64,000 bases of DNA from an uncultured Acidobacteriota bacterium. GTDB lineage: Bacteria > Acidobacteriota > Vicinamibacteria > Vicinamibacterales > 2-12-FULL-66-21. The stretch is taken from contig CAVOHG010000009.1 of the NCBI GenBank assembly GCA_963695655.1, forward strand, positions 372,012 to 436,011, written 5' to 3'. A program made the translations under genes and the position numbers. Under the pieces are notes generated by a model. It was not told where the DNA came from. It worked only from the letters and a program-made list of their open reading frames with translations, and did no database searches. Positions 3,013 to 25,182 of this stretch are shown piece by piece (position 1 is the stretch's first letter; each line of letters opens with the position of its first letter).

Positions 3013-3905
3013 ACAGACCTCGTCCACTCGTCGTATGGCGTTGCATCTGCACGCAGCGCCGCGATCAGAGCCGGCCACGGCTCGCAATGGTATGCCGCGG
3101 CGGCCTCGAACCGTGTTCCGTTCAGGCTCCGATCACAGAAAAAGGCATCGTCGGCTACAACCTTGACGTCCAGGCCAAACGCTTCGACGATCAACCGCAA
3201 TAAGTCGTATTTCGTGATCGTATCACTTGCGATCTGGTACAGACCGTTGAGAGCCGGCCGTTCCTCGATCAACCGGGCGACCACCGACGCGAGCTCGTTC
3301 GTGGTAACGCCCGAGTAGAAGGCCTTGCGATAGCCGCTGATCGTTCGGCCCTGCTGCGCGAGCACCCAGTCCAGCAGCGACCGGTGCCCGGTCAGCTCAC
3401 GCCCGATCATCGACGTCCGCAACGTAAGTGCGTTCGACTCGGTCACTTCGCCGAGCGCCTTGGTCCGCCCATACAGGTCTTCGGCGTCCGGGAGGTCGTC
3501 CTCCGTATACGCCCCTCGGCGACCATTGAAGACGCAGTCCGTGCTGATGTGCACGAGACGGCCGTTCCAGGGCTGCAGCGCCGCTGCCAAACGGTGAGGC
3601 AACAGCGAATTCACGGTGATGCTGGGAATCGCCGCCTTCGCCTCGCCCCGCTGCTTGACGATGCCGACACAGTTCACGACCACGTCCGGACGGAGGGCTG
3701 CCAGCTGACCATCGAGAGCGCCAAGCGCCATGACATCCATGTTCTCGACGATCCGGGCCGACTCGGTGAACAACGGTATGCGGTCGAGTGGTGAATCCGC
3801 GATACGACCGCGGATTGTGCACCACGTGTCGGGAAATCTCTGTCCGAGCGTCTGGAACATCTTGTGGCCGAGCATTCCCGACCCGCCGAGAACGAGAATC
3901 CGCAC
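3009..3905 (-). CDS. RmlD-fold SDR reductase (probable 4-keto reductase of the L-HexNAc branch; WbvR/FnlB role)
   Basis: ORF 3009..3905(-), 298 aa, GTG start. It has MRILVLGGSGMLG (NAD motif), VVNCVGIVKQ, ISTDCVFNG and YGRTKALGE (YxxxK), the dTDP-4-dehydrorhamnose-reductase family layout. Confidence 0.8.
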   Translation of the reverse strand: MRILVLGGSGMLGHKMFQTLGQRFPDTWCTIRGRIADSPLDRIPLFTESARIVENMDVMALGALDGQLAALRPDVVVNCVGIVKQRGEAKAAIPSITVNSLLPHRLAAALQPWNGRLVHISTDCVFNGRRGAYTEDDLPDAEDLYGRTKALGEVTESNALTLRTSMIGRELTGHRSLLDWVLAQQGRTISGYRKAFYSGVTTNELASVVARLIEERPALNGLYQIASDTITKYDLLRLIVEAFGLDVKVVADDAFFCDRSLNGTRFEAAAAYHCEPWPALIAALRADATPYDEWTRSV

Positions 3906-7522: not shown

Positions 7523-8500
7523 CTACGCGCGCCCGTACCGCAGCCGTCGAATGGTCCGTGTGACTTTACTGATCGGGCGGAAGAGCGGCGGGTTCAGCAG
7601 AACGCCCCAGGTGAACCAGTGGTAAGGCGACAACCTGTCCAGCACCAGGGCGCGAAGATCGTACTTGGCAGGCTTGAAGACCGTGCGGTGCGCCTCGAAG
7701 TCGCCATCGACTTCAATCGCGGATTGGTCCATCGTGCCGAATCCGGTTGCGGCCGCAAGGGGGATATGTCGTGCCCTGGCGACGTCGAGGCCGACCAGCC
7801 GCATGGCGGTAGCGTCGAGCGCGACGACGTCCCGGCTGGCGAGCACGAGATCCAGCCTGCGCGGATCTCCGTAACTCGGTCCCATCCCTTCCATCGCGAC
7901 GATGGCGTCCATGATGGCGAAGTGGGGGCGGAGCAGGCGAGGAAGCTCGGCCAGGCATTCGTGGAGGTGTCGATGCATGAAGAACCGGTCGACTCGCGGC
8001 ACGCAGCCCCACATGTTCTTGATCGCGCCGGTGAAATACCCCTGCACGTGCGTCTTGAGTACCGGCATCGAGATGAAGACGTCCGCATCGAGGATTTCGG
8101 CGGGAAGCTCAAAGCCGTCGAATCGCGGCGAGTCGGCGCGCCGCGTCGGCCGCCGCGAGAAGTTCACGAGTTCGAACTTCAGCTCGCGCGCGAGGTCGTA
8201 CAACCCGTTCAACTCGAACGCGTCCTCGGCAGGGCACGTGCGCGGAGGGTTGATCATGTCCGACTCGCCAACCGTGATGTTCGGTGTACGGGTCTGCAGA
8301 ATTCGGATGACCGCGGCCAGCAATTCCATTGACGTGTTCGCCGCCTCGACGCGCTCCGGATCAAGCGAGACCAGGTTGGGCTTGATCACGACACGCGCAC
8401 CAGGCTTGACGACGTCCGTCCACCCACAAGCGTCCATCGCCGATCGGACGACGTCTTCGAGGGCGCCGTGTTTTGTCGATCTGATGGCTACGATTGGCAT
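7523..8500 (-). CDS. DUF362 domain-containing protein
   Basis: ORF 7523..8767(-) trimmed to ATG 8500 (MPIVAIRSTKHG..). It has VVIKPNLVS, ITVGESD, ADVFISMPVLKTHVQGYFTGAIKNMWGCVP and IMDAIVAMEGMGP, which are the DUF362 hallmarks. Its stop TAG abuts the Wzy ATG. Confidence 0.8.
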   Translation of the reverse strand: MPIVAIRSTKHGALEDVVRSAMDACGWTDVVKPGARVVIKPNLVSLDPERVEAANTSMELLAAVIRILQTRTPNITVGESDMINPPRTCPAEDAFELNGLYDLARELKFELVNFSRRPTRRADSPRFDGFELPAEILDADVFISMPVLKTHVQGYFTGAIKNMWGCVPRVDRFFMHRHLHECLAELPRLLRPHFAIMDAIVAMEGMGPSYGDPRRLDLVLASRDVVALDATAMRLVGLDVARARHIPLAAATGFGTMDQSAIEVDGDFEAHRTVFKPAKYDLRALVLDRLSPYHWFTWGVLLNPPLFRPISKVTRTIRRLRYGRA

Positions 8501-8502
8501 CC

Positions 8503-9640
8503 CTAGTCTCCCTTGTCCCCGGAGTGCTGGAACGCCAGCACGAAATCCCTGATGTTGTCTGGCGTGCCGCGTGAGGGCCGAAATGCGGCGCCAATTCCAT
8601 CGAGAACGGCGCGGCGGACGTTCGACGCCTCGTGCAGCGCCGTGTACGCCAGGAACCGTCCAGGGTTGAACGGGTGGTAGGCGCGAATTTCGCTGCGTTT
8701 CGCGAGAACCTCTCGAATGGAGAGGTCCCACTTGAAGAACCGTTGCAGACGCACTAAGTACACCCACATAGCATCGTAGTCGAACTCCACCCGTTCGTAG
8801 AATTCTGGAAACAGGTCGTGCGCAACCAAGACCGCATCAGCGATGAGGTTCGCCTTCAGAGTCACGCCTGGATACAGGGTGGGATGGATTTGGTAGTCAC
8901 CGTACTCACTGACGAACTGATCCTGCACGCGACGGCCGTCGGTCGAGGTTGCTGACCCTCCGTGAGACTTTGGCGAACGGCCATGTGAGGTCACGGCGAA
9001 GCCTGTCTGGAACGCCGAGTCGGCAACCGCCGGAATCGCCGCTGAGAGGAACACGTCGGGCAGTGTCGTGTGGAAGACGCGGCCAGTTCGCCGTCGGATC
9101 AGGTCTGGCAACTCCCGCGCAACGGCCGAGTGATACATACATGGAATGTCATAGTGCTTCCACCCGCCCATCCGCATCATCAGTCGAGCGGCCGCACCAA
9201 GGTCCATGGGCATCGCTGGACCTTCGGAGGCCACATGCGACGTCTGTGCAGCAAGCCCGTCCATCGGCCAGGTGTAAATGTGAGTCGGCCACTTGTAAAC
9301 GGACGCCGGATGGCGCGAATGCAATTCCTTCAGCCGCGTGAGCGCACCGGGCATGACGGCGTCGTCGTCTCCGATATAGGCGATGTAATCGCCGGTCGCG
9401 TGCTCGAGCGCGAACTCCCAGTTGTCGCACATCGACAGCCGACGGTCAGTCCTGACGTCACTTGAGACGCGGATCGGTGACAGCCCGGACGACGTCGGCC
9501 GTTTGTTGCGAACTCAAATTGTCACTGACGATCACCTCGAGATCCGCCATCGGGTCCATCAGGGCGGTTTCGATGGCGTATGCGAGCGTTTCGTGGCGCT
9601 CGCGGGTCGGAATCACCAGTGAGAGAAACGGTCGGCTCAT
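8503..9640 (-). pseudogene. Glycosyltransferase family 2 (GT-A), split by one frameshift
   Basis: ORF 9458..9640(-) reads MSRPFLSLVIPTRERHETLAYAIE..VIVSDNLS..DPRLK*. The adjacent frame continues DVRTDRRLSMCDNWEFALEHATGDYIAYIGDDDAV.. (ORF 8503..9432). Removing one base near 9456-9460 restores ..RLKYVRTDRRLSM.. and a single enzyme of about 378 aa. Confidence 0.85.
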
Positions 9641-11151
9641 TAGAGGCTCACCGCCCGCAGAGACCTGGAATGGCGTGAGAGCCAGGCCCGCGGCAGAGGT
9701 GTCACCAGGGTGGCGGCGATAGTCGCGAGGGCGACGACCCCCGCCAGCATCGCCACCGCACCAGCCCTTCCGAACTCTGCGTCAGGCGATAACATCCACG
9801 CCACCAGTACGGTGACCACTGCGGCGAGTGCGGGCTTACCGACGTCCGTCATATACCACGCCCTCAACTCCCCGGGCAGCAGCCGCCGGTGCAGAATTGT
9901 CATTTCGATCGTGATGTATCCGATATTCAGCACGAGCCAGGCGATTGCGGCAGCGATCGGGCCGAACCGTGGCGTGAGCACGATAAGCGCCGGAACCATT
10001 AACAGCAGCCCAGCCACGTTACAGTACAGAGTGAGATTAGTGCGCCCGTACGCCAGCTGCAGCATGTATGGGATGTTCATCAGTGCGTTCAGCGCCACTC
10101 CAGTCACCAGCACCGAGAGCACCGCGCCGGAGACAGTCGCGACCTTCGCATTTCCGGTCCAGACACGCAGAACCAGCGGCGCAAAAAACGCCAGCACGGC
10201 GGCAATCGGCACGACCAGAACCGTTACCGTCTGTGTAGCCCGGTGGTAGAGAACCGCGGTCCCGGCGCTGTTCCCCGAGGCGGCTTCGCGCGTGAGACCG
10301 GGGAAGGCCGCGGCTGCGACCGGCGCCACAAGGGCATACAAGCTGTTGGCCGCCACCGCCGCGAGGCTGTAGTAGCCGAACATTTCAAGTGAAAGCAGCC
10401 TGCTCAAGACGATCTTATCAATTTGGGTGAGCAATAGCGTTGTCGCGGAGATGGCGCCCATCCCGGCAGTGAACCGCCAGACGCCGGAGAGTGCCGTCGC
10501 CGAAAACCGCGCTTTGCGAGGTTCGCCAACGTAGCGCCAGAGAACCACAGCAGTTAACAGCGCACTCGACGCACTGACCGCGACCTGCCACCAAAAGAAC
10601 GTGCGCAGACTCGCCGAGACCGTCAACAGTACGAGGGCCGCTCCTCCGTAGCGGAGGGTGCTGGTGGCAATCAGCAGCGCGTTGGACATGACCTGCCGTT
10701 CCAACCCCAGCAGACCTCCTGAGTAAAAGCCAAGCGGCCACTGGAACGCGAGCACCAGCGCCATCAGGACAATGGCACGCTGGACTTCGGCCTGGGGTAG
10801 CGTTCGCGCCTGAACCCAGTGCGCCGCTACCCACCCGGACCCGCTCATTATTACGAACGCGGCAATCACGGCCGTCGTCCAGTAGACCGCCTCGAGCGTC
10901 CTGAGCACGTGCCGCGAGTCCGCGCCGGACGCCGACCGCACTGCGAGTTCTCGATTCAATGTCGTCGTGAGCCCGACGTCAATAATTGCGAACGACGCCT
11001 GAAGGGTGGTGTAGAGCGCGATCAGTCCATACGCCTCGGGTCCGAGTGCTCTTAAATAGACGGGGACAAAGGCAAGTGCCATCACGGCCGACCAGCCACG
11101 GCCCACGAGGTTCGCCACCAGATTTCGGCGAAACCTGTGAGATGGGTTCAC
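9640..11151 (-). CDS. wzx: Polysaccharide flippase, MOP/Wzx family
   Basis: ORF 9640..11244(-) trimmed to GTG 11151 (GTGA overlap with the upstream stop). It begins FRRNLVANLVGRGWSAVMALAFVPVYLRALGPEAYGL and has roughly 12-14 hydrophobic helices. Its stop overlaps the GT2 ATG by 1 nt. Confidence 0.85.
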   Translation of the reverse strand: MNPSHRFRRNLVANLVGRGWSAVMALAFVPVYLRALGPEAYGLIALYTTLQASFAIIDVGLTTTLNRELAVRSASGADSRHVLRTLEAVYWTTAVIAAFVIMSGSGWVAAHWVQARTLPQAEVQRAIVLMALVLAFQWPLGFYSGGLLGLERQVMSNALLIATSTLRYGGAALVLLTVSASLRTFFWWQVAVSASSALLTAVVLWRYVGEPRKARFSATALSGVWRFTAGMGAISATTLLLTQIDKIVLSRLLSLEMFGYYSLAAVAANSLYALVAPVAAAAFPGLTREAASGNSAGTAVLYHRATQTVTVLVVPIAAVLAFFAPLVLRVWTGNAKVATVSGAVLSVLVTGVALNALMNIPYMLQLAYGRTNLTLYCNVAGLLLMVPALIVLTPRFGPIAAAIAWLVLNIGYITIEMTILHRRLLPGELRAWYMTDVGKPALAAVVTVLVAWMLSPDAEFGRAGAVAMLAGVVALATIAATLVTPLPRAWLSRHSRSLRAVSL

Positions 11152-11936
11152 GGCCGCTCCGACCCGGTCTGTGCGTCCTTGCGGAGCCACGCGCCCGGCC
11201 AGTGCGTCACAACTTGTGACAGTTCGCTTTCGTTGAACGGCCACCTGGGTGGGGCAAGCTGGAATTGGGGGTGCGAGGCGGCGAAGTCCCGCGCCGCGGC
11301 TTCAGGGTTGTCGACCACCCACTCGGGCCGGCCCCGCGGGATGTCACTGAAGTACATCATGGCGCCGTCAGTCGCAACGATGTACGAGCCGTCGGAAACG
11401 AGTCCATGGTATGCCTCCAGTTCGGCGAGCACGTGCCGCTTCGAGTGGTCGGAGTCGAGCACCACCATGACGCGCTCGTCTGGACGAATCCGCCCGCGGA
11501 CGTCCTCGACCACTGCCGGGTCGACCGAACTGCCTTCGATCAGGGTGATGTACGAGGACAATTCGTGCGTTTCGATGGCCCGCCTGTTCTGCGGCCGAAT
11601 CTCGATATCCACACCAATCACTCTTCCCCGCCCCATCGCCTTGAACAGGCTGGCGTAGAAAATCAGCGAACCGCCGTGGGCAACGCCGGTCTCGACGATG
11701 ACATCCGGCCGAACCGCGTAGATCACTTCCTGCATTCGAACGATGTCTTCCGGGAGCTGGATGATTGGCCGTCCCATCCACGAAAATCCGTAGCCGTATT
11801 TCAAAGACCAGCCAACCCGCACCCACTGGTGCGACAACACCGAAAAGGCATCGGGCGTGTAGAGTCCCATCCTTTTTTGAGTCCCGCCGTCGTCGACGGT
11901 CAAAGACCCGGCCTCGGTGTCAATTTCAATCCGCAT
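11148..11936 (-). CDS. CmcI (cephalosporin hydroxylase)/rhamnosyl O-methyltransferase-family methyltransferase
   Basis: ORF 11148..12137(-) trimmed to ATG 11936 (MRIEIDTEAG..). It has GRPIIQLPEDIVRMQEVIYAVRPDVIVETGVAHGGSLIFYASL, VIGVDIEIRP and VMVVLDSDHSKRHVLAELEAY. Confidence 0.82.
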   Translation of the reverse strand: MRIEIDTEAGSLTVDDGGTQKRMGLYTPDAFSVLSHQWVRVGWSLKYGYGFSWMGRPIIQLPEDIVRMQEVIYAVRPDVIVETGVAHGGSLIFYASLFKAMGRGRVIGVDIEIRPQNRRAIETHELSSYITLIEGSSVDPAVVEDVRGRIRPDERVMVVLDSDHSKRHVLAELEAYHGLVSDGSYIVATDGAMMYFSDIPRGRPEWVVDNPEAAARDFAASHPQFQLAPPRWPFNESELSQVVTHWPGAWLRKDAQTGSERP

Positions 11937-13104
11937 CCAGTTTGCTCCGCATGAGGTCAACGAGCCTGACGTCGAGACCTGCGTCTCGCACGATCGCTGC
12001 GTTTTCGTGGAAATAGTTCGGGTTGGTGAGCACAGCGGTCTTGACATCGAAGGCCGCCATTCCTCGCGGTGCGACGATGGGATGGCCCGTCCCGGGGAGG
12101 TACCGTCCCTGTTTGTTCGGGTTGAGGTCGACCACACAGGCGACGATCTGCTCGTCCGGGTCGGTCAGGCCGGCGAGTGTGACTCCCTTTGCTGCTGCAC
12201 CCCAGATGGCGACGGGCCCGTCGCCGCGCAGCCGCTCGATGAACCCACGAAGCTCGCGCCGCATCTCCGCTTCATGGTGCCCGAATGCGTCAGCCAGGGA
12301 GGCGATTGCGGGATCGCCATGCGCGTCCGCCGGTTCGGCCTTACCAGCGCGTGCTTCTAGCCACAAGTATTGGCCACCGAAGACGTGAGACACCGTGTCC
12401 ACCTCGAAACCGGCGACCTCGAACGCGTACTGCAGCGACGAAGCGCTGAAGTACGAACAGTGTTCGTAGAAGAAATCCCAGATGACTCGGTTTCGCAAGA
12501 TCCACTCGACGCAAGGAGTCTCGAAGAACACGCGTGCCCCAGGCCGCAGCGTTTGCCTGATTACCCGCAGAAATGCCAGCGGCTCGGCCACGTGTTCAAT
12601 CACATGCCGGCACACAACCACTTGTGCTTCGATGCCGCTGCACGAGGCGTCGTAGAACCTTCGCTCGAAGCGGAGACGGCCTTCCAACGCGGTATCCGGG
12701 CCGACGTAGCTGGGATCGAACCCCATACCCTCGCTCTGCGGACTGCGCAGCAACAGGCTGCGAATGAACTCACCTTTGCCGCAGCCAATCTCGATGATCC
12801 GCAGCGCGTCCGACCCTGCCTGCTCCATCAGGCGGTCGGCGAGTCCCTCGACGTATCGCTCGAAGGCGGGCGAGGACGTCTGGGTATTGTCGTAGGCGGC
12901 GCCGTAGCGAAGTCGTTCCAGCTCGAATGCGGCGTTGAAGACAAAGCCGCAGACGTGACAGGCACACACGTCGAGAGTCCCGTTGCCCAGCAGCCGGGCG
13001 GAGGCGCGATCGTCGACCAGAAGGTTCTGGTGAACGGATACGCGATCACGATGCAAGAAAGACGGGCCGCAGGCGGAACCGCACACCGGACATCTCGCGG
13101 TCAC
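11926..13104 (-). CDS. NDP-hexose C-methyltransferase (Zn-ribbon + class I SAM MTase + C-methyltransferase C-terminal domain), copy 1
   Basis: ORF 11926..13140(-) trimmed to GTG 13104 (GTGA overlap). It has CPVCGSAC..CACHVCGFVFN (Zn ribbon), IIEIGCGKGEF (SAM motif I), VVCRHVIEHVAEP and a C-terminal AIWGAAAKGVT..VVDLNPNKQGRYLPGTGHPIV. This is the TylC3/NovU-type architecture. Confidence 0.82.
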   Translation of the reverse strand: MTARCPVCGSACGPSFLHRDRVSVHQNLLVDDRASARLLGNGTLDVCACHVCGFVFNAAFELERLRYGAAYDNTQTSSPAFERYVEGLADRLMEQAGSDALRIIEIGCGKGEFIRSLLLRSPQSEGMGFDPSYVGPDTALEGRLRFERRFYDASCSGIEAQVVVCRHVIEHVAEPLAFLRVIRQTLRPGARVFFETPCVEWILRNRVIWDFFYEHCSYFSASSLQYAFEVAGFEVDTVSHVFGGQYLWLEARAGKAEPADAHGDPAIASLADAFGHHEAEMRRELRGFIERLRGDGPVAIWGAAAKGVTLAGLTDPDEQIVACVVDLNPNKQGRYLPGTGHPIVAPRGMAAFDVKTAVLTNPNYFHENAAIVRDAGLDVRLVDLMRSKLDAD

Positions 13105-14009
13105 GACACAGGCCCTCGCTGTAAATGTGATGACCACCACGAGACCGCTTCCGCCAGCGCGACCTCAAAACTCCGGGAGGGTACCCAGCCGACTTCCTCG
13201 CGCAACCTTTGCACGTTCGCCACCACAAAAGGAGCTTCGCCGGTCGAATTGTCGGTTTCGACGAACTCGGGTCGCCCGAGCTGCGCCGCGACGCCTCGTG
13301 CGAGCGCGCCGGTCACAATCGGGACGCCGGAGCCGATGTTCACCGGGCCGCTCACGTCGCTGTTGAAGAGAGCCACGATCGCGCGGGCGGCGTCGTCCAC
13401 GTGAAGAAAATCGCGAACGGCAGTCGCCGAGCGACAGCGGGCTGGTTTCGACGACAGCAGATCGTTGACCAGAGAGGGCACCAGCCGGCTCGAGTGCTCG
13501 TGCGGTCCGAACAGGAAGAAAAGGCGGGCCCACGCGGCGCTCATGCCCCCCGGATTGCCATACGCCTCTAACACCGAGGCTGTTGCCAGTTTCGCCCTGC
13601 CGTAGAGGGTCGCCGGGCACAAGGGAGTGAAACGCTCGGTGCAGTAACCATAGCGCCAGTCGTACTCTGCGCACGTACCCACAGCGACGACTCTCTTACC
13701 GCCATTCGCGGCGAACGCTTCCAGCAATCCGACCGTCGCGGCGACCCATGACAGGTTGAGGTTCGAGTGCCAGTAATCGGGGGGAGTTGCATGCCAGGCG
13801 AGGTGAACCATGCCGTCCGCCTGAACCGACTCGAGGAGCGATTGGACTTTTAATGGCTGCAGTACATCGGCCTGGTGCCAGGTCGCACGTGGATCGCGCG
13901 GTCCACCCTGGCGCGAACTTACGGCGTGCACGTCGTGTCCGGCCTCGGCCAGAGCCGGCAGCACGTGGCGGCCGACGAAGCCGGTCGCTCCGGTGAGCAG
14001 AACGCGCAT
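13101..14009 (-). CDS. NAD-dependent epimerase/dehydratase-family SDR (probable sugar 4-ketoreductase)
   Basis: ORF 13101..14099(-) trimmed to ATG 14009 (MRVLLTGATGFVGRHV). It has VAVGTCAEYDW and YGRAKLATA (YxxxK). It overlaps the rmlC-like stop by 1 nt. Confidence 0.8.
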   Translation of the reverse strand: MRVLLTGATGFVGRHVLPALAEAGHDVHAVSSRQGGPRDPRATWHQADVLQPLKVQSLLESVQADGMVHLAWHATPPDYWHSNLNLSWVAATVGLLEAFAANGGKRVVAVGTCAEYDWRYGYCTERFTPLCPATLYGRAKLATASVLEAYGNPGGMSAAWARLFFLFGPHEHSSRLVPSLVNDLLSSKPARCRSATAVRDFLHVDDAARAIVALFNSDVSGPVNIGSGVPIVTGALARGVAAQLGRPEFVETDNSTGEAPFVVANVQRLREEVGWVPSRSFEVALAEAVSWWSSHLQRGPVS

Positions 14010-14539
14010 CACAGCACGAAATCCGGATACCCGCGGTCGCGATCCGACATGACAGCCGGTGGCAGTGGCCATTCGATCCCGAAGGCGTGATCGTTCCATC
14101 GGACACCGCGAGCGAGTGCCGGGGCGTACGATTCGGAAATCAGGTACAAGATCTCTGCGTCGTCAGTCAGGGTTTGGAAGCCGTGAGCGACGCCTTCCGG
14201 GATGTAGAGCGAGAGTCGATTCTCCTCGTTCAACACCCACGCGCGCCACTGCCTGAACGTTGGCGAAGCGGGACGCAGATCCAGGAGCACATCGTAAATC
14301 GCGCCGCGCACGCACCGGACCACCTTGGCTTCCTCACGCGGCGCCGCCTGGTAGTGCATCCCGCGAAGCGTGCCTGCCCGCGCATTGAAGGACAGGCTGC
14401 ACTGCGCGAGGGCAACCCGCAAACCTCGAGCAGCAAACTCGTCCGCGGACCAGGTTCTCGCGAAAAAACCACGTTCATCGTGGATCTGCTCGAGGCGAAG
14501 CAGCCATGCGTCTGACAAGTCGAGAGATTCGAAAATCAC
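14009..14539 (-). CDS. rfbC: NDP-4-dehydro-6-deoxyhexose 3,5-epimerase (RmlC-like cupin)
   Basis: ORF 14009..14539(-), 176 aa, GTG start. It has DERGFFARTW, GTLRGMHYQ, KVVRCVRGAIYDVLLDLR, LYIPEGVAHGFQTL and ILYLISESYAP. Confidence 0.9.
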   Translation of the reverse strand: MIFESLDLSDAWLLRLEQIHDERGFFARTWSADEFAARGLRVALAQCSLSFNARAGTLRGMHYQAAPREEAKVVRCVRGAIYDVLLDLRPASPTFRQWRAWVLNEENRLSLYIPEGVAHGFQTLTDDAEILYLISESYAPALARGVRWNDHAFGIEWPLPPAVMSDRDRGYPDFVL

Positions 14540-14543
14540 GGTA

Positions 14544-15779
14544 TCAGGCGACGTGTGGCTGCGGAACAGGAATGATGAATTGACCGCCGCGGCGACGGTA
14601 CTCGGCCTGCTGGTCCAAAATTTCCGCGGCGAAGTTCCAGGTCAGAAGCAGCACGCTTTGTGGCATTTCCTCCAGCAGCGTCTCCACACTTCGAATCGGG
14701 AGGTGCGTCCCCGGCGTGAACAGGCCCTGTTTGACCGTGCTTCGATCGACGACGAAGTCGAGAGTCTCTCGTCCGATCCCGCAGTAATTGAGGAGCGTGC
14801 TGCCCTTTGCCGAAGCACCGTACGCCGCAATCCGTTTGCCATCCGACTTGAGTCGCGAGAGCAGAGCCAGCAGCGCACTGCGGAGATCCTCCACCCGGCG
14901 GGCAAACTCCGTATATGCGGCCCCGTCGGCCAGCCCGTACTCCTGCTCGTCTCGAAGCATGGTTTCAACCGCCGCGCCTCGTGCCCGGGAGCCGTGGGGC
15001 GAAACAAACAGCCGCAGGCTGCCGCCGTGGATCGCGAGACGCTCGACATCGTGAACGATCAGGCCACGCGCGGCAAATAGCCGATCGACGGCGGTCAGCG
15101 AGAAGTAGCACAGGTGCTCGTGGTAGATGGTGTCGAATTCGACGTGGTCCAGCATGTCCCGGACGTACGGCACCTCGATGACTGCCACTCCATCCGGCTT
15201 CAGCACCGTCCTGATCCCGTCGACGAACCCGCCGAGATCGGGGACGTGCGCCAGCACGTTGTTGGCGTGGAGGATGTCCGCGCGGAGGCCGTCGGCAGCC
15301 AATTGGCCCGCGAGGTCGCGCCCGAAGAATTCGCTCACGGTCCGAATGCCGCGTTCTTCCGCTACGACGGCGATGTTCCGTGCCGGCTCGATTCCAAGTA
15401 CGGGAACGCCACGGCACGCGTAGTGCTGGAGGAGATAGCCGTCGTTACTCGCGACCTCCATCGCGAGACTCGACGCCCCCAGCCCGCGCTCCTCGACGAT
15501 GCGTTCGGCGATGGCGCGCGCGCTGGCAACAGCCGTGTCCGAGAACGAGGAAAAGTAGACGTACTCGCGAAAGAGATCGGCCGGCGGGACTGTTTCGGTG
15601 ATCTGCGTCAGCGAACAAGCCGGGCAGAAGACGAGCTCGAGCGGGAACCGGGGCTCCTCCGCCTCACGTTGATCCGCCCGCACGAGCGCGTTGGCGAGCG
15701 GCGTGGTACCGAGCGAGAGCACGGGATCGAGCCTGGCGTGACCGCAGGCGCGGCACACGAAGGGAGGCGATGCCGTCAT
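14544..15779 (-). CDS. NDP-hexose C-methyltransferase, copy 2 (paralog of 11926..13104)
   Basis: ORF 14544..15836(-) trimmed to ATG 15779 ([14 protein letters not shown]..; ATGA overlap). It has a Zn ribbon (CRACG..CPACS), [32 protein letters not shown] and a C-terminal [35 protein letters not shown]. Confidence 0.82.
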
Positions 15780-16789
15780 CCGCGTGCCTGGCCAGCAGCC
15801 TGTCGCTCGTCGGCCGCGAGAAAGCTGCGATACCACGCGATCGTCCGCTCGAGCCCCTGATCGAGCGTGAATAGCGGCGCCCAGCCAAGCTCCCGGCGGG
15901 CACGGTCGGCGCTCAGATACTGATGCCGAATCTCGTGCGTTGCTTCGCCGCGCACATCCGGACGGACCGAGCTGCCCATCTGCGCGAGGATGCGCTCGAC
16001 GAGTTCTGAGACCGTGACCTGGATCTCATTCGAGAAGTTGTAGGCCTGGCCCTGGACGGCAGGGTCGGCGGCCAGCTTCTCGGCCAGCAGCAGATACGCC
16101 GCCGCACCGTCTTCGACATAGAAGTAGTCGCGTACGTAGTTGCCGTCCGAGCGGATGACGACCGGCTGGTCCCTGAGGACGGACCGGATGGTCCCCGGCA
16201 CGATCCGGTTCCAGTTGAGATCGCCACCGCCGTAGAAATTGCCGCAGCGCGTGATCGCGACCGGCACATCGTAGGTCGTCGCATACGTCTGCGCGATCAG
16301 ATCGCCGCATGCCTTGCTCGCATCGTAGGGGTGGCGGGGCCGCAGCGGAGTGTCCTCGTGGTACGGCAGGACCTCCTGGTCGCCGTAGGCCTTGTCGGAC
16401 GAAGCGATGACGACCTGTCGAACCAGCGGACTGCGCCGGCACGCCTCGAGCAACGCCCAGGTGCCAGCGATATTGGATTCGAACGTCGAAACGGGATTGC
16501 GATTCGCTATGCCGACGATGGTCTGAGCGGCAAGATGAAACACGGTGGTGATCTCGTATTCGCCGAGCACGCGCTCGAGCGCAGCCTGGTCTCGAATATC
16601 ACCGCGAACGGTGACTACCCGTCCCAGTAGTCCAGTCCGGATCACGTCCGCCTCGGGAACCCAGTCGCGAACGAGGCATACCACGTGCGCACCCGCGGCC
16701 ACCAGCCGGCGCACCAGCCAGCCGCCAACCAGGCCCGTCGCGCCGGTGACGAGCGTGGGTCTGTCCTGCCAGAATGTTGCAGTTACCAT
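15776..16789 (-). CDS. rfbG: CDP-glucose 4,6-dehydratase
   Basis: ORF 15776..16942(-) trimmed to ATG 16789 ([25 protein letters not shown]). It has [26 protein letters not shown] and [15 protein letters not shown]. It lies directly downstream of rfbF. Confidence 0.82.
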
Positions 16790-17550
16790 AATTTCCAGGG
16801 GGCGCGCTGCTCCGACCACAGCGCTTCCAGGTAGCGCTTGTCCCTCAGCGTGTCCATGCACTGCCAGAAGCTCCCGTGACGGAACGCCACCAGCTGGCGC
16901 TGGCGCGCGAGCTCTTCGAGGGCGTGCGTCTCCAACACACATTCGTCACCCGAGAGATACTCGAAGATCGCGGGCTCCAACACCATGAACCCGCCGTTGA
17001 TCCAGCCCTCGCCCATTTGCGGCTTCTCGGTGAACTCAGCGACGAAATCACCGTCGAACGCGAGTCCGCCAAATCGGGAGGGGGGCCGTACGGCCGTGAT
17101 CGTCGCAATGCGTCCGTGCTGACGGTGGAAGGCGAGCAGCTCGGCGAGGTTCAAATCGGCGACGCCGTCACCGTATGTCAGCATGAAGGGTCCGCCCGTG
17201 AGCCAGGGCTTCAGCCGGGTGACGCGCCCGCCAGTCATCGTGTCCAAGCCGGTGTCCACCAGGTGAATTTTCCAGGCCTCGCAGTCCGCCCCGTGCCGGT
17301 CGATCGTGCCTGCGCCGGTGTCGAGCGTCATGCTGCCGGCGAGCGACGTGTAATCGAGAAAGTACCGCTTGACGACATCCCCTCGATAGCCGAGCGCGAT
17401 GAAGAACTCTGCGAATCCATAGTGCGAGTAGTGCTTCAGGATGTGCCAGAGCAGCGGGCGGCCGCCGACCTCCACCATCGGCTTCGGCTTGACCTCGGTT
17501 TCTTCGGCCAGGCGCGTGCCGAGTCCCCCTGCGAGTATGACCACCTTCAC
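16783..17550 (-). CDS. rfbF: Glucose-1-phosphate cytidylyltransferase
   Basis: ORF 16783..17550(-), 255 aa. It has [70 protein letters not shown] and [11 protein letters not shown]. Confidence 0.93.
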
Positions 17551-17577: not shown

Positions 17578-19413
17578 TCAGGCATCGAGGGTCGCGTGGC
17601 TGCTCGGCACGTATGATGCGACCTGACGGGTAATGAGCATTTCGATTTCCATCCGGTCCCCGGAATGCGCTGCAGCCAGCAGCGCATCGAGCGGCACCGG
17701 CTCGACCGACTGGGGCTCGGCGACACGCATGATGTCGGGGTGTGCCGTTGCGCTGACAACCGCAGAATCCTCCCAGAGCCGCTCCTCCAGTTTTTCACCA
17801 GGGCGCATCCCGGTGAACACGATCGGGATCTCGTCGGGTGCGAAGCCGGACAGGGTCACGAGATCGCGCGCGAGCTGGCTGATTCTGACCGGTTCACCCA
17901 TGTTCAGCACGAACAACTCGCCACCCGAGGCCATCCCTCCCGCCTGGAGCACCAGGTGGACCGCCTCTGGGATGGTCATGAAGAAGCGCGTCATGTCGGG
18001 GTGGGTCAGGGTAATCGGCCCGCCCGCTTCGATCTGCCGCTTGAAATGCGGGACGACGCTGCCGCGGCTGCCGAGCACGTTGCCGAACCGGACGATCGCG
18101 AACGCGCGGCCGGAGCGCTGCGCCGCCTCGAGGACGATGCGCTCGGCGATGCGCTTCGACGCCCCCATCATGCTGCGCGGCTCCACCGCCTTGTCCGTCG
18201 AGACCAGCACGAAGCGCTGCGTACCGGTTGCGGTCGCCGCATCGACGACGGCACTCGTGCCGCCAATATTGTTGGTGACCGCTTCCTCGGGGTTCAGCTC
18301 CATCAACGGCACGTGCTTGTGAGCGGCGGCGTGGAACACGACCGCCGGCCGATACCGCTGGAACACCTGGAGCAGGCGGTCGCGATCGCGAACGTCGACG
18401 ATCGCAGTGGCCAGGTGCACGTCGGGAAAAGCCGTTCGAAGCTGCTGTTCGGCCTCGAAGATGCTGTTTTCGCCGTGACCGAGCAGCACCAGGAGCGACG
18501 GCCGCGCGTGTGCGACCTGGCGGCACAACTCCAGCCCGATCGACCCGCCTGCGCCGGTGACCACTACGCACCGGTCGGCCAGGTAGGTCGCAGCGCCAAT
18601 CGGGCCGATGATCTCTGGACGCCGCAGCAGGTCCGCGATATCGACCTCACGGAGCCGCTGCACACTGACTCGCCCGTCGAGCAGCTCGAACATCCCGGGC
18701 ACCGTTCTCGACGAAACTCCGGCGCCGGCACAGACCTGAGCGACAGCGCGGATCGCCGCGCCGGCGGCGCCAGGCATCGCGATAATCACTTCCTGGATCG
18801 AATACGCCTCGATCGTCCGTGCCAGGTCTTCGACCCGCCCGAGCACGCGCACCCCATAGATGCGCTTCCCCTGCTTGATTGGGTCATCGTCGAGCATGCC
18901 GATCGGTTCGAGCCCGAGGTGGTCGTTTCGCTCCAGTTCACGCAACACCGCAGTACCGGCGTCGCCGGCACCGACGATGAGTACGCTGCGCCGCGGGCCG
19001 GACCGTAACCCGCGACGCCGTCCACGGTGTTCGCTCAGCCACCTGACGCAGAAGCGCAAGCCCCCGACCAGCACCAGCGTGAGCAGCAGATCGATGAGAA
19101 TGACCGACCGCGAGAACTGGGCCAGCGAGCGGGTCGATACCGCGACTGTGATCCCGACGGCGAGCACGGCGGATGCCGAAGACACGGCCGCGGCAATGGC
19201 GACGAGATCGCGCACCGTGGCGTACGCCCAGTAGCGCCGGTACAGGCCGAACACCGAGAACACGAGGGGTTTGACGAGGATGGCGGCGACAAGGAAGGGA
19301 ACGAATTCCCGTCGGTCGCTGAAGAAGAGCCAGTCGAACCGGAGGACGAATGCTCCCAGCACCGAGAGTGCGATGAGGGGTACGTCGAGCAGAAGTACGA
19401 AGCGGTTCCTCAT
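17578..19413 (-). CDS. Membrane-bound polysaccharide biosynthesis protein CapD/PglF/WbpM type (UDP-HexNAc 4,6-dehydratase)
   Basis: ORF 17578..19413(-), 611 aa. It has four N-terminal hydrophobic helices, then VLIVGAGDAG and VVVTGAGGSIG Rossmann motifs, VSTDKAVEPRSMMGASKRIAE and FGNVLGSRGSVVPHF. There is an ATGA overlap with the upstream stop. Confidence 0.9.
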   Translation of the reverse strand: MRNRFVLLLDVPLIALSVLGAFVLRFDWLFFSDRREFVPFLVAAILVKPLVFSVFGLYRRYWAYATVRDLVAIAAAVSSASAVLAVGITVAVSTRSLAQFSRSVILIDLLLTLVLVGGLRFCVRWLSEHRGRRRGLRSGPRRSVLIVGAGDAGTAVLRELERNDHLGLEPIGMLDDDPIKQGKRIYGVRVLGRVEDLARTIEAYSIQEVIIAMPGAAGAAIRAVAQVCAGAGVSSRTVPGMFELLDGRVSVQRLREVDIADLLRRPEIIGPIGAATYLADRCVVVTGAGGSIGLELCRQVAHARPSLLVLLGHGENSIFEAEQQLRTAFPDVHLATAIVDVRDRDRLLQVFQRYRPAVVFHAAAHKHVPLMELNPEEAVTNNIGGTSAVVDAATATGTQRFVLVSTDKAVEPRSMMGASKRIAERIVLEAAQRSGRAFAIVRFGNVLGSRGSVVPHFKRQIEAGGPITLTHPDMTRFFMTIPEAVHLVLQAGGMASGGELFVLNMGEPVRISQLARDLVTLSGFAPDEIPIVFTGMRPGEKLEERLWEDSAVVSATAHPDIMRVAEPQSVEPVPLDALLAAAHSGDRMEIEMLITRQVASYVPSSHATLDA

Positions 19414-20879
19414 GCCGACGCAGGGCCGTGTGAGTGCGAACGCAGTTCCGTCGCGACGAGGCCGATCGCCCCGCAGACGAACCCCAGAAGCAGCCCCAGC
19501 GCACCGAACATAGGGAGCTTCGGCCAGACGGGCGTATCGGGGGCCACAGCCTTGTCCACGAGCTGCAGCGTCGTCGCGCTCGTCACGGCACCGAGCCGAG
19601 CCTCCTCGTATTGCATCGACAGTTCGCCGTGGATCCGGCGCGCGATGTCGACGTCCGTACGACGCCGCGCCGCTTCGAGCTGCTTCTGGTGCAGCTCGGT
19701 GATCTGACCGAGCTCGGCGCCGTCGATCTTGAGCACATCGACGAGTTCCCGCCGGCGACGCTCGAGTCCTGCGAGCTTGGTGCGGGTGGTCGCGATCTCG
19801 TACTGCAAGGTCGAGTAAACGGGATTGACGAGAGGGTTCGACGTATCCACCAACCCGGACTGGTCCGCGGGAGTGGAGAGCGCCGGGTCGCGCCTCGAGC
19901 GCGCATCCCTGTCATTCGGATCCGGGGCCGTCGAATCGGAACCACGCACACGCGTCGTCGCTTGCGTGCCGTCGTCAGCACGCGCTGTCAGCCGGCCTTC
20001 GTCCTGGCGTTCGGCCCGTTCCGCCGATGCGTCGAGCTCCCGACGCGTCGAATCCGCGTTCGCATTCGCCCGCTGGTGGCCGAGCGCCTGCTCAGCGCCG
20101 ACCAGTCGCGGCGCCGCGAGAATTGGTTCGTAGTTCTTGATTTCTGCTTCGGCAGCTCGCAGCCGAGCCTTGTCCGTCTCGATGTCGACGAGCAGCGCGA
20201 CCAGCGCACCCCGCTGTGTCAGGCGCGCGTTCGCGTCTTCCTGGGTCAACTCGACCTGCGCCTTCGCGTTGTAGCCCTCAAAGCGGTCCTCGGCGGTGCG
20301 GAGCTTGTGCTCGGCCTGGGTCAACTGGTCTTTGAGGCTGTCAGCCATGATGACGGCGCTGCCGAGATCGAGCTGTCTCTGCAAGTCGATCAACTTCGTC
20401 GCGAGCGAGTTGCACACCGACGTGGCAACCGCCGGGTCCCCGAGACGCACACGGATGCGGAGCAGATTGGTCCCGCGCACCTCGTCGACCGCGAGGGTGC
20501 GTTCGCGGAAACGCTGGGCACTCAGCCCAAAACGCGGATCGCTGAGGTTGAAGTCCGTCACGATCTGGCTTGCGAGCGCGTTGCTTTCGGCGAGGAGCCT
20601 GAAACGGGTCAGCGGAGGCGCGGCCTGCGCCTCGCGCCTCGGCGGGGTCACCATCACAAGCGCAGACGCTTCGTACTGCTTCGGGAGGACGAGCGCCGCG
20701 ATTACGCCCACCAGCAGTCCTGCGACGGCGAGCCCGAGCAGCCATCGCCAACCCTGGCGCAATCGGAGTCCCGAGCCGCCGAAGATGGACTCCGGCTCAC
20801 CGGCATCTGCGGCAAACGTACGCAGGCGTTCTGAAGGCGGTTCGGCTGATGCCGGACGCAACTGATTCCTTTCAACCAA
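19410..20879 (-). CDS. Polysaccharide chain-length determinant / GumC-like co-polymerase (no tyrosine-kinase domain)
   Basis: ORF 19410..20879(-), 489 aa. It has an N-terminal TM (WRWLLGLAVAGLLVGVIAALVLP), KQYEASALVMV, a long coiled-coil region and a C-terminal TM (LPMFGALGLLLGFVCGAIGLV). No Walker A motif is present. The TTG start is uncertain. Confidence 0.8.
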   Translation of the reverse strand: MVERNQLRPASAEPPSERLRTFAADAGEPESIFGGSGLRLRQGWRWLLGLAVAGLLVGVIAALVLPKQYEASALVMVTPPRREAQAAPPLTRFRLLAESNALASQIVTDFNLSDPRFGLSAQRFRERTLAVDEVRGTNLLRIRVRLGDPAVATSVCNSLATKLIDLQRQLDLGSAVIMADSLKDQLTQAEHKLRTAEDRFEGYNAKAQVELTQEDANARLTQRGALVALLVDIETDKARLRAAEAEIKNYEPILAAPRLVGAEQALGHQRANANADSTRRELDASAERAERQDEGRLTARADDGTQATTRVRGSDSTAPDPNDRDARSRRDPALSTPADQSGLVDTSNPLVNPVYSTLQYEIATTRTKLAGLERRRRELVDVLKIDGAELGQITELHQKQLEAARRRTDVDIARRIHGELSMQYEEARLGAVTSATTLQLVDKAVAPDTPVWPKLPMFGALGLLLGFVCGAIGLVATELRSHSHGPASA

Positions 20880-21054
20880 TCCGACTAGATCTGCTGCCGA
20901 CCCCTGACGGATGAGCCCGCCGACGTCGAGAAAGGCTTGTCATTATATCGGTGCCTCAGAAGAACGCCTAATCCCCAGCCTGTTAGCGGTGGCAGTCAGC
21001 CTCAGGCATACCGCTTGCCTCATCTGGACGCGGGATGCAGGAGGCAGGCACAAA

Positions 21055-24846: not shown

Positions 24847-25182
24847 TCGGCGGACCGTCTCCAAGACTGCACCGGAACAGCACACGGCCCGTCAGTGGGC
24901 AATCGAGGCTGTGCCCTTCTCATTGCCCCCAGCGACAAAGCTCACACAAACAGTTGAGTTAAGTCACCTGAACGACGGACATTCCGCCGTCCGCTGACAT
25001 TACCGGTTTGGTGGGTCAGCAATAAAGGTTGCGTAGACAACCAGTTAGGTCGTACAGCTTCAATTGATTCAAGCTCTGCCCTTTGGTGGTCATCTTGCGA
25101 AGGCTGAGGTGAACCTGGCCGACGGCCCACAACAGGGCGTCGTCCTGAAACACGGCACTTCGAGAGATTGCGTACCCCCAAC

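Follow-up and report, generated by a model that had tools for sequence, protein, structure and literature searches.

A widespread CDP-sugar cassette with two distantly paralogous TcaB9-fold methyltransferases and a predicted vinelose-type product

Introduction

CDP-vinelose of Azotobacter vinelandii, reportedly described by Okuda, Suzuki and Suzuki in the Journal of Biological Chemistry in 1967/1968, is CDP-6-deoxy-3-C-methyl-2-O-methyl-L-talose. It contains a single C-methyl and a single O-methyl group, and methionine is the source of both; no genes are known to have been assigned to it. In the dTDP-L-mycarose, dTDP-D-mycarose and tetronitrose systems (TylC3, MtmC, TcaB9 and KijD1), which serve antibiotics, an NDP-4-keto sugar is methylated, epimerized at C-5 and then reduced at C-4. 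The dTDP-L-noviose pathway (NovV/T/W/U/S plus the 4-O-methyltransferase NovP) places its methyl group at C-5, not C-3, and NovP, a TylF-type and not a CmcI-type enzyme, acts after glycosyl transfer.

Comparable gene sets have been linked to bacterial surfaces. In Synechocystis PCC 6803, slr0983-slr0985 and slr1610 are presented as rfbF-rfbG-rfbC-"C-3 methyltransferase" beside Wzm/Wzt and linked to surface polysaccharide export, and deletion of slr1610 is stated to alter the EPS (PMC3769361). The same article refers to an rfbFGC cluster that Hausman reported in 1998 for A. vinelandii. Separately, an rfbG mutant of this species is described as having a surface phenotype. For virenose (6-deoxy-3-C-methyl-D-gulose) of the Coxiella burnetii LPS, the accounts point to a proposed TylC3-like methyltransferase (PMC3539893, PMC3204966). 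Here, we analyze a related locus of an uncultured Acidobacteriota bacterium and compare it with these systems.

Results

The window, by which we mean the whole stretch of 64,000 nucleotides analyzed, carries seven translationally coupled genes on its minus strand at 11148-17550, with wzx directly after them. Pfam and NCBIfam profile matches confirmed all seven genes named in a preliminary description, essentially at the coordinates given there. From the first to the last gene of the unit, they and wzx are as follows:

16783..17550, minus strand: rfbF, glucose-1-phosphate cytidylyltransferase, 255 aa, GTG start (TIGR02623, PF00483)
15776..16789, minus strand: rfbG-type NDP-glucose 4,6-dehydratase, 337 aa (TIGR02622 as best NCBIfam match, below cutoff; PDB 1rkx, 1wvg)
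14544..15779, minus strand: MT1, canonical NDP-4-keto-hexose 3-C-methyltransferase by homology, 411 aa (Methyltransf_13/_23/_14; MtmC, KijD1, TcaB9)
14009..14539, minus strand: RmlC-type 4-keto-6-deoxyhexose epimerase, 176 aa (PF00908, TIGR01221)
13101..14009, minus strand: SDR, predicted 4-ketoreductase, 302 aa (PF01370)
11926..13104, minus strand: MT2, divergent TcaB9-fold SAM methyltransferase, 392 aa, GTG start (Methyltransf_23, KijD1/TcaB9, AlphaFold)
11148..11936, minus strand: CmcI/rhamnosyl-O-methyltransferase-type methyltransferase, 262 aa (PF04989)
9640..11151, minus strand: Wzx-type MOP flippase (PF13440, PF01943, NF007773)

Every junction from rfbF to wzx is an overlap or a gap of at most 4 nt (ATGA, GTGA, TGATG and similar). 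The rfbF stop overlaps the rfbG start, the ATGA start of MT1 overlaps the rfbG stop, the GTG start of MT2 overlaps the SDR stop, the CmcI-type gene and MT2 overlap by 11 nt, and wzx is translationally coupled to the cassette via a GTGA overlap. The seven genes and wzx therefore form one coupled unit. The PF13440 and PF01943 matches uphold the Wzx half of the previously proposed Wzx/Wzy operon, but the candidate Wzy at 6059-7522 gave no significant family match (E = 0.84). That one Wzx-coupled operon encodes a C-methyltransferase of the TylC3/TcaB9 type, an epimerase of the RmlC type, a reductase and a methyltransferase of the CmcI type likewise stands.

Next, we looked into the carrier of the sugar. 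RfbF matched TIGR02623 at 355 bits (cutoff, 300; coverage, 1-255/255) and also matched PF00483. The dehydratase scored 224.6 bits against TIGR02622 (CDP_4_6_dhtase), under the cutoff of 278; its closest solved structures are the CDP-glucose 4,6-dehydratases 1rkx (176 bits) and 1wvg, the dTDP enzymes reaching no more than 140 bits, and its homologues in window-type loci share 71-75% identity. Judged by these relatives, the dehydratase is probably specific for CDP-glucose. Because RfbF lies above its equivalog cutoff and the dehydratase is nearest to CDP-glucose 4,6-dehydratases, we take the sugar to be CDP activated, as the preliminary description had it.

MT1 matched Methyltransf_13 (76.8 bits), Methyltransf_23 and Methyltransf_14 (195 bits over 2-160/160). 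It scored 337 bits against MtmC (E = 2e-99) and 270-281 bits against KijD1 and TcaB9, and in the alignment it conserves the equivalents of all five TcaB9 active-site residues (Y76, H181, Y222, E224 and H225). The RmlC-like protein matched PF00908 (204 bits), TIGR01221 (163.7 bits, exceeding the cutoff of 155.75) and, in the PDB, RmlC 3ryk (146 bits) and NovW (120 bits); by eye, in comparison with RmlC, a His (RGMHYQ), a Lys (EAKVV), a Tyr and an Asp (SDRD) are its candidate catalytic residues. The SDR matched PF01370 (146 bits) but had no close characterized relative, its best PDB match being UXS1 (81 bits), so that the product may be either talo or manno at C-4. The CmcI-type protein matched PF04989 (231 bits) and CmcI 2bm8 (E = 4e-9) and reached 84.7 bits against NF045824, a rhamnosyl O-methyltransferase model with a cutoff of 400; its homologues in related loci share 56-66% identity nearly throughout and 39-47% in a few.

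Starting from glucose-1-phosphate, these enzymes would build a vinelose-type sugar, a CDP-activated 6-deoxy-L-hexose that is O-methylated and bears a methyl branch at C-3. RfbF would make CDP-D-glucose, the dehydratase would turn it into CDP-4-keto-6-deoxy-D-glucose, and MT1 would add a methyl group at C-3 via the 3,4-enolate. The RmlC-type enzyme, restricted to C-5 because the methylated C-3 is now quaternary, would invert that carbon to give the L series, the SDR would reduce the 4-ketone, and the CmcI-type enzyme would O-methylate. Its most likely target is O-2, the position methylated in vinelose and, on rhamnose, by the mycobacterial relative of the enzyme. We infer this order of steps, with its regiochemistry and stereochemistry, from the enzyme families. 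Six of the seven enzymes (RfbF, RfbG, MT1, RmlC, SDR and CmcI) would account exactly for vinelose, with MT2 as the extra one. That the cassette makes a CDP-3-C-methyl-6-deoxyhexose is, in our judgment, highly probable.

The gene block had been implied to be rare, which its distribution does not support. Relatives of MT2 occur in 409 species genomes, and among the 63 loci with enough flanking sequence to be assessed, 52, from many phyla, hold the complete seven-gene cassette. Only two main gene orders are found; SDR-MT2-CmcI is almost invariant, and the gene directly preceding MT2 is nearly always the SDR. Wzx adjoins the cassette in loci of the Acidobacteriota and Gemmatimonadota type, and a homologous Wzx (41-49% identity) directly follows CmcI in L020, L033, L039, L059, L061 and L079. 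The cassette often recurs beside flagellin genes: in Azotobacter and many Betaproteobacteria it lies within flagellar loci, beside TPR-GT41 glycosyltransferases and flagellin. Azotobacter chroococcum and A. paspali carry the cassette, and an MT1-type protein was found in A. salinestris. The cassette is thus widespread, portable and uncharacterized, and the block in the window is one instance of it.

Four variant cassettes contain MT2 and lack MT1 (L026, L040, L046 and L064), so each methyltransferase is apparently workable alone. This would suit a cassette that makes two different sugars, an MT1 branch and an MT2 branch, with RfbF, RfbG, RmlC and SDR in common. We regard such a division as very unlikely, given the single epimerase, reductase and CmcI genes, the translational coupling of all the genes, the strict co-inheritance of the seven across most assessable loci and the lack of any sign that each such sugar has a transferase of its own.

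We then considered what MT2 adds. In Pfam, it matched Methyltransf_23 (91 bits) and part of Methyltransf_14 (50.9 bits, 45-132/160), with no significant match to Methyltransf_13; its residues 13-358 align with KijD1 and TcaB9 (E = 1e-19). The only whole-chain PDB matches of its AlphaFold model (pLDDT, 92.8) are MtmC, KijD1 and TcaB9 (TM, 0.79-0.82; 21-24% identity). MT1 and MT2 are only distant paralogues, with 25% of residues identical across 296 alignment columns (E = 7e-19), a refinement of the earlier view of two paralogous C-methyltransferases. The MT2 family (1,604 clusters at E ≤ 1e-30) has as invariants four Cys (CxxC...CxxC), an E-x-GCG SAM motif and the equivalents of Y76, H181, E224 and H225, with an invariant Phe at the Y222 equivalent. 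By homology to TcaB9 and KijD1, the C-terminal domain is probably the nucleotide-binding one; the KijD1 structure 5t64 was solved with TDP. Natural SDR-MT2 fusions (P0385, P0386, P0387 and P0461) tie MT2 to the reduction step.

We propose that MT2 would place the third methyl group on a hydroxyl, most simply the 4-OH that its neighbor and occasional fusion partner, the SDR, would just have created. The end product would be CDP-6-deoxy-3-C-methyl-di-O-methyl-L-hexose, which in the window would be destined for a Wzx-dependent surface polysaccharide. It is above all this choice of O- over C-methylation that we infer, and an O-methyltransferase derived from a C-methyltransferase fold is a tentative assignment, to which we give slightly less than an even chance. 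To our knowledge, all enzymes of the TcaB9/TylC3 fold characterized so far C-methylate NDP-4-keto sugars, and the four active-site residues kept in MT2, the Glu-His base pair included, would be compatible with that chemistry; both points count against O-methylation.

Alternatively, MT2 might carry out a second, NovU-like C-methylation of the CDP-4-keto intermediate, at C-5, the sole other carbon alpha to the ketone. The product, before O-methylation by CmcI, would be a 3,5-di-C-methyl (C-5 gem-dimethyl) 6-deoxyhexose, the doubly C-methylated sugar previously suggested. The three domains that MT2 shares with sugar C-methyltransferases of known structure and the four conserved active-site residues point this way, the SDR-MT2 fusions would suit an enzyme acting right before reduction, and the variants without MT1 reproduce the five-enzyme noviose set, L026 and L040 exactly, which fits MT2 as a C-methyltransferase there. 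After C-3 methylation, however, an epimerase is useful only if C-5 keeps its hydrogen; with both carbons quaternary it would be idle, yet RmlC is kept in 61/63 loci, with the candidate catalytic residues in the window copy. This retention argues against a C-5-methylating MT2 and fits 5-epimerization of the vinelose or mycarose type. The invariant Phe also speaks against C-5 methylation, as does vinelose, the sole CDP-branched sugar known from a cassette-bearing genus, which has a hydrogen at C-5. Since, moreover, we know of no 3,5-di-C-methyl sugar from any source, we consider this reading unlikely.

MT2 could also leave the ring alone at the nucleotide stage and act on a substituent such as an O-acyl group (an O-methylglycolyl ester has been reported on CDP-vinelose), after transfer to polymer or protein, or on another NDP-sugar of the same locus. 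An MT2-CmcI pair occurs without the rest of the cassette in L019, L042, L057 and L085, in L019 beside a TPR-GT41 glycosyltransferase; MT2 is fused to a cytidylyltransferase-like domain in P0394; tandem MT2-like proteins exist; and UDP-HexNAc enzymes resembling FnlABC and PglF are encoded elsewhere in the window. The MT2-CmcI pairing is equally in line with the vinelose-type reading. Against these observations, MT2 retains the putative nucleotide-binding domain, lies inside the CDP cassette whether the setting is polysaccharide or flagellar, whatever other sugar genes lie nearby, and belongs to a conserved cassette without an acyltransferase. We therefore find such a role quite improbable.

For the vinelose-type pathway as a whole, with O-methylation by MT2, our confidence is modest but leans in its favor. 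The Azotobacter occurrences of the cassette, the rfbF-rfbG-rfbC order reported for A. vinelandii and the phenotype of its rfbG mutant speak for it. The below-cutoff score of the dehydratase against the CDP-specific equivalog weighs against it, as does the fact that vinelose needs only two methyl transfers.

Discussion

Among surface-associated systems, the first four Synechocystis genes have the order of the proteobacterial cassette type; export there is by an ABC transporter, whereas the window has Wzx, and the cluster as described in PMC3769361 includes no SDR-MT2-CmcI genes. The reported A. vinelandii cluster shares the rfbF-rfbG-rfbC order of the cassette (PMC3769361). Virenose resembles the predicted product in being a 3-C-methyl-6-deoxyhexose of a bacterial surface polysaccharide, but in the accounts cited above it is proposed to be GDP linked, mannose derived, of the D series and free of O-methylation.

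The likeness drawn earlier to the enzyme logic of noviose and mycarose is a fair one. MT1 is clearly homologous to the mycarose and tetronitrose enzymes, and the cassette would follow the same sequence of methylation, epimerization and reduction. It differs in using CDP instead of dTDP, in having no 2-deoxygenation or amination and in serving a surface polysaccharide or flagellin glycan. With noviose it shares a nucleotidylyltransferase, a 4,6-dehydratase, an RmlC-like epimerase, a TylC3-family C-methyltransferase, a reductase and subsequent O-methylation, the carrier again being CDP in place of dTDP.

The preliminary description knew of no CDP-linked branched sugar, and CDP-vinelose is one. 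The cassette goes beyond the needs of vinelose by one methyltransferase, MT2, its third, and the predicted likeness does not extend to the configuration at C-3 and C-4. What the predicted sugar and CDP-vinelose would have in common is CDP activation, a 6-deoxy sugar of the L series, a SAM-derived 3-C-methyl branch and one O-methyl group.

Organization of the locus

The minus strand of the window carries an unbroken series of genes that starts at about 20.9 kb and ends at 0.8 kb and includes a cassette of seven genes at 11148-17550. Two of these genes encode methyltransferases, referred to here as MT1 (the canonical copy) and MT2 (the divergent copy). Start codons were re-derived from domain boundaries and homologue lengths.

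Genes of the minus-strand series, from its upstream end, with their best family matches
19410-20879, Wzz/GNVR protein, upstream of rfbF, with a match to its family
17578-19413, minus strand, PglF/CapD-like membrane dehydratase, upstream of rfbF
16783-17550, minus strand, RfbF, full-length match to TIGR02623 (355 bits; cutoff, 300.25)
15776-16789, minus strand, RfbG-type 4,6-dehydratase, best family TIGR02622 (224.6 bits, below the cutoff of 278.45)
14544-15779, minus strand, MT1, Pfam Methyltransf_13, Methyltransf_23 and Methyltransf_14
14009-14539, minus strand, RmlC-type epimerase, TIGR01221 (163.7 bits, above the cutoff of 155.75) and PF00908 (204 bits)
13101-14009, minus strand, short-chain reductase (SDR)
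11926-13104, minus strand, MT2, partial match to Methyltransf_14
11148-11936, minus strand, CmcI-type methyltransferase, PF04989 (231 bits over positions 2-205 of 206) and CmcI structure 2bm8 (E 4e-9)
9640-11151, minus strand, Wzx, after the CmcI-type gene
8503-9640, minus strand, family-2 glycosyltransferase (GT2), just downstream of wzx
7523-8767, minus strand, DUF362 protein (176 bits), flanked by the GT2 and candidate Wzy genes
6059-7522, multi-pass membrane protein, candidate Wzy
Further downstream of wzx, a GT1-family glycosyltransferase and an epimerase
827-3905, minus strand, FnlC/FnlA/FnlB-like trio (UDP-GlcNAc 2-epimerase, CapE/FnlA-type dehydratase and RmlD-like reductase)

The closest solved relatives of the 4,6-dehydratase are the CDP-glucose 4,6-dehydratases 1rkx and 1wvg, and the dTDP-glucose dehydratases rank behind them. 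The epimerase carries candidate RmlC-type catalytic residues (His, Lys, Tyr and Asp), picked by eye in the translation. For the SDR, comparison with the structure database returned no close characterized relative. The CmcI-type enzyme scored 84.7 bits against NF045824, the mycobacterial rhamnosyl 2-O-methyltransferase model (cutoff, 400), and by these scores is a member of the CmcI/rhamnosyl O-methyltransferase family but no orthologue of the mycobacterial enzyme.

Read in order from rfbF to wzx, the junctions are ATGGTAA, ATGA, a 4-nt spacer, TGATG, GTGA, an 11-nt overlap and GTGA. At each junction, the two genes overlap or lie at most 4 nt apart, and the seven genes and wzx therefore form one translationally coupled unit. 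Together with family matches for all seven genes, these junctions bear out the block proposed in the preliminary description. Of the Wzx/Wzy operon in which it placed the block, Wzx was identified by family matches (as was Wzz/GNVR), and the candidate Wzy at 6059-7522 had no significant family match (PF14296, E 0.84). A Wzx-dependent heteropolysaccharide locus is a reasonable assignment, with Wzy putative. Given the flanking FnlC/FnlA/FnlB-like trio and the PglF/CapD-like dehydratase, the polysaccharide probably also has 6-deoxy-HexNAc residues.

The GT2 gene is broken by a frameshift near 9435-9450, with the N-terminal 60 residues in one frame and the rest in another; the joined frame scored 70 bits against PF00535 from profile position 1, versus 27.8 bits for the truncated open reading frame (ORF). 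The frameshift is either a sequencing error or the mark of a pseudogene. On the plus strand, an FG-GAP repeat protein (20911-24386) apparently continues through three frames (ORFs 20911-23811, 22787-23875 and 23811-24386), the tails of which read as out-of-frame sequence. Taken together, the breaks in the FG-GAP and GT2 genes suggest either decaying genes or an assembly with indel errors; all seven cassette genes are full length. Beyond the FG-GAP gene, a 1,144-residue protein (25168-28602, plus strand) with a DMFA2_C domain (337 bits), DUF4082 and Big_5/Big_7 Ig-like domains is probably secreted or on the surface. AT skew is strongly positive (0.23-0.26) in the 2-kb bins 6001-8000, 42001-44000 and 54001-56000 and about 0-0.1 elsewhere in the window.

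Two methyltransferases of one fold

The preliminary description had assigned two C-methyltransferases to the block. When both proteins were compared with the Pfam models Methyltransf_13 (PF08421, the zinc ribbon) and Methyltransf_14 (PF08484), MT1 matched both (76.8 bits, and 195 bits over positions 2-160 of 160), and MT2 gave only a partial match to the second (50.9 bits), with no significant PF08421 match for the window copy. MT1 aligned with the solved enzymes MtmC (337 bits) and KijD1 and TcaB9 (270-281 bits). In the alignment with MtmC, it retained all five equivalents of the TcaB9 active-site residues Y76, H181, Y222, E224 and H225, which according to the PDB titles are those mutated in entries 4e2w-4e31. 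By these features, MT1 has the profile of a textbook sugar 3-C-methyltransferase.

MT2 is 25% identical to MT1 (E 7e-19) and aligns with KijD1 and TcaB9 over residues 13 to 358, the ribbon region included; precomputed PF08421 matches exist for some of its homologues. Among 42 family members, the cysteines C5, C8, C49 and C52, the E-x-GCG SAM motif and four of the five active-site equivalents (Y71, H171, E214 and H215) are invariant or nearly so, and the position of Y222 is taken by Phe, with Tyr as the next residue, both of them invariant. An AlphaFold model of MT2 built on 42 homologues had a mean pLDDT of 92.8. Its sole whole-chain matches in the PDB were MtmC, KijD1 and TcaB9 (TM 0.79-0.82 over approximately 405 columns, 21-24% identity), and the next matches covered the SAM domain only, at a TM of about 0.35. 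The three-domain fold of sugar C-methyltransferases was thus found in both proteins, for MT1 through Pfam and for MT2 in the predicted model. On the strength of the whole-chain matches and the family-invariant residues, we regard MT2 as a genuine and probably active member of the TcaB9-type fold.

Two other views of MT2 were considered. A degenerate, noncatalytic protein was rejected because neither the Glu-His pair nor the SAM motif nor the zinc cysteines vary within the family. Action on a nonsugar substrate was judged unlikely, given that the PF08484 domain, taken as nucleotide binding from the solved TcaB9 and KijD1 complexes, is kept and that MT2 is embedded in the CDP cassette at most of the loci compared below.

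MT2 belongs to a separate clade of 1,604 clusters at 50% identity (E≤1e-30), whose members are annotated in the source databases merely as "class I SAM-dependent methyltransferase". Natural fusions of SDR and MT2 occur (P0385, P0386, P0387 and P0461, about 690-720 residues), as do tandem MT2-like halves (P0384 and P0389, about 815-820 residues) and a fusion of MT2 to a cytidylyltransferase-like domain (P0394).

The cassette across bacterial genomes

In a scan of about 185,000 species, with one genome per species, relatives of MT2 were found in 409, and on long contigs the same genes flank the MT2 homologues. We compared the window proteins by tblastn with the best 80 of these loci, 63 of which had enough flanking DNA. 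All seven genes were present in 52 of the 63; the window order, rfbF-rfbG-MT1-RmlC-SDR-MT2-CmcI, occurred in 24 and the order rfbF-rfbG-RmlC-MT1-SDR-MT2-CmcI in 19. The trio SDR-MT2-CmcI was nearly invariant, and RmlC was kept in 61 of the 63. Variants were MT2 without MT1 (L026, L040, L046 and L064), no SDR between MT1 and MT2 (L056), no RmlC (L076), and MT2 with CmcI alone, beside a TPR-GT41 transferase (L019). The hosts comprise Acidobacteriota, Gemmatimonadota, Planctomycetota, Chloroflexota, Cyanobacteria (Microcoleus, Trichodesmium and Okeania, with Thermosynechococcus from a separate homologue search), many Betaproteobacteria, Paenibacillus, Rhizobium, Azospirillum and Azotobacter. The scan and the locus comparison rule out a feature peculiar to the present genome. 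We found no description of the seven-gene cassette in the literature searched, and papers on Accumulibacter glycans and on enterobacterial flagellin islands did not mention it.

Two genomic settings recur. In window-type loci (L020, L033, L039, L059, L061 and L079), a homologous Wzx gene directly follows CmcI. Elsewhere the cassette lies among flagellar genes, as in Azotobacter chroococcum DSM 2286 (L055, 31-20235), where fliA, a PilZ/HD protein and UDP-glucose dehydrogenase precede it, in this order, and a 1,209-residue TPR-GT41-GT2 protein, flagellin and motA/motB follow; this setting suggests that the CDP-sugar is used for flagellin glycosylation. At least 12 loci have a flagellin gene no more than 10 kb away, and about 20 have a TPR-GT41 protein at such a distance. 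Many betaproteobacterial loci and that of Paenibacillus whitsoniae (L070) likewise have flagellin or TPR-GT41 genes next to the cassette, and locus L004 adjoins fliT, fliK and an flhB-like gene. The recurrence of both contexts thus marks the cassette as a portable sugar-donor module, which serves Wzx-dependent polysaccharides or apparent flagellin glycosylation islands. In two Gallionellales loci (L002 and L003, 12005-20554), the cassette is followed immediately by two B12-binding radical SAM genes, a sulfotransferase, a GFO/IDH/MocA oxidoreductase and a class III aminotransferase, which may encode further glycan tailoring.

Proposed pathway

In the pathway that we propose, RfbF would form CDP-glucose, the dehydratase would convert it to CDP-4-keto-6-deoxyglucose, MT1 would methylate C-3 via an enolate, and the RmlC-type enzyme would then act as epimerase, inverting C-5. 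These steps, from CDP-glucose to epimerization, are deduced from the established chemistry of the enzyme families concerned. After MT1 has acted, C-3 is quaternary, so that the epimerase is left with C-5 inversion only, as in the L-mycarose pathway. The SDR is the sole candidate for 4-ketoreduction, and the CmcI-type enzyme would supply the O-methylation step of a vinelose-type sugar.

The coupled genes include a full set sufficient for a CDP-6-deoxy-3-C-methyl-2-O-methyl-L-hexose, made up of those for RfbF, the dehydratase, MT1, RmlC, the SDR and CmcI; judged by family membership, these six enzymes would be exactly those needed for the L-talose form or its manno epimer. CDP-6-deoxy-3-C-methyl-2-O-methyl-L-talose is CDP-vinelose, which was obtained in the 1960s from Azotobacter vinelandii. 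The preliminary description had read the block as a CDP-linked branched deoxysugar pathway with no described precedent; the vinelose-type enzyme set agrees with the first part, and the second is wrong, because CDP-vinelose is a CDP-linked branched sugar.

Role of MT2

With the six other enzymes accounted for, we considered what MT2 might add. Our tentative preference, held at a little under an even chance, is that MT2 is an O-methyltransferase evolved from a C-methyltransferase scaffold and acting on the reduced CDP-sugar. Its simplest target would be the 4-OH made by the neighboring SDR; such a target would account for the SDR-MT2 fusions as well, and the product would be a trimethylated sugar with one C-methyl and two O-methyl groups.

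The same fusions can also be cited for a second C-methylation by MT2, which would be possible only at C-5, as performed by NovU. MT2 has the fold of the sugar C-methyltransferases and retains the Glu-His base with Tyr and His residues, and the cassettes with MT2 and without MT1 mimic the noviose enzyme set. However, if MT1 fixes C-3 and MT2 makes C-5 quaternary, the epimerase is useless, yet it is almost always kept; the equivalent of Y222 is Phe throughout the clade; MT2 always accompanies CmcI downstream of the reductase, and the two stand alone together beside a TPR-GT41 gene in L019; and vinelose bears a hydrogen at C-5. We consider C-5 methylation unlikely. In particular, we infer that the conservation of RmlC together with MT1 speaks against methylation of another ring carbon. 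The retained RmlC, the Phe in place of Y222, the pairing of MT2 with CmcI and the hydrogen at C-5 of vinelose are the reasons for which we favor O-methylation.

The probability left by these two readings goes to those in which MT2 modifies a substituent, works after the transfer step or uses a different sugar. For CDP-vinelose, a 4-O-(O-methylglycolyl) ester is reported as well and would offer another methyl acceptor, but the conserved cassette has no acyltransferase.

A broader claim would be that MT2 founds a large, uncharacterized clade of NDP-hexose methyltransferases with a new regiochemistry, in its strongest form a C-5 C-methyltransferase; we give this a small chance. If MT2 did act at C-5, the cassette would make a CDP-linked 3,5-di-C-methyl, O-methylated 6-deoxyhexose, a type of sugar of which we know no description, and hundreds of bacterial species would put it in flagellin glycans and exopolysaccharides.

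Significance and relation to known systems

For the dTDP-linked sugars of antibiotics, the pathways to branched-chain deoxysugars are well understood; to our knowledge, those for CDP-linked cell surface sugars are almost unstudied. The cassette is common (soil Acidobacteriota, Cyanobacteria, Betaproteobacteria and Azotobacter) and modular, serving in Wzx polysaccharide loci or flagellin glycosylation islands, and it brings with it a clade of TcaB9-fold methyltransferases without a known activity. The novelty is this clade and a product yet to be assigned, not CDP-linked branching as such.

The cassette is also a concrete gene candidate for CDP-vinelose, for which no genes and no biological destination are known to have been identified. 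In Azotobacter, the flagellar setting of the cassette suggests flagellin as the destination of this sugar. The case is ordinary as an instance; its use is as a lead, because direct tests are possible for what MT2 does, for the vinelose genes and for a possible destination of vinelose on flagellin.

The literature searched contained no paper on vinelose. Besides A. chroococcum, the cassette was found in Azotobacter paspali (L065), and an MT1-type protein was found in Azotobacter salinestris. A. vinelandii was not among the named top matches to the A. chroococcum MT2 and MT1 queries, where most entries are nameless, so that its absence is not implied. In A. vinelandii, the reported gene arrangement is rfbF-rfbG-rfbC (Hausman et al. 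1998, as cited in PMC3769361), and an rfbG mutant of that species is described as agglutinating (Gavini et al. 1997, as cited in PMC5335844). For Synechocystis, PMC3769361 places a "C-3 methyltransferase", slr1610, after rfbF-rfbG-rfbC and states that deletion of slr1610 alters the exopolysaccharide. The link to vinelose is drawn from these points together: the cassette in Azotobacter species, the gene order and rfbG mutant phenotype of A. vinelandii, and slr1610 of Synechocystis. The block belongs to a widespread and apparently uncharacterized type of cassette for a CDP-linked, vinelose-type branched sugar. The proteobacterial gene order of the cassette is that of rfbF-rfbG-rfbC in A. vinelandii, and, compared with the needs of CDP-vinelose, the cassette carries one surplus methyltransferase, MT2.
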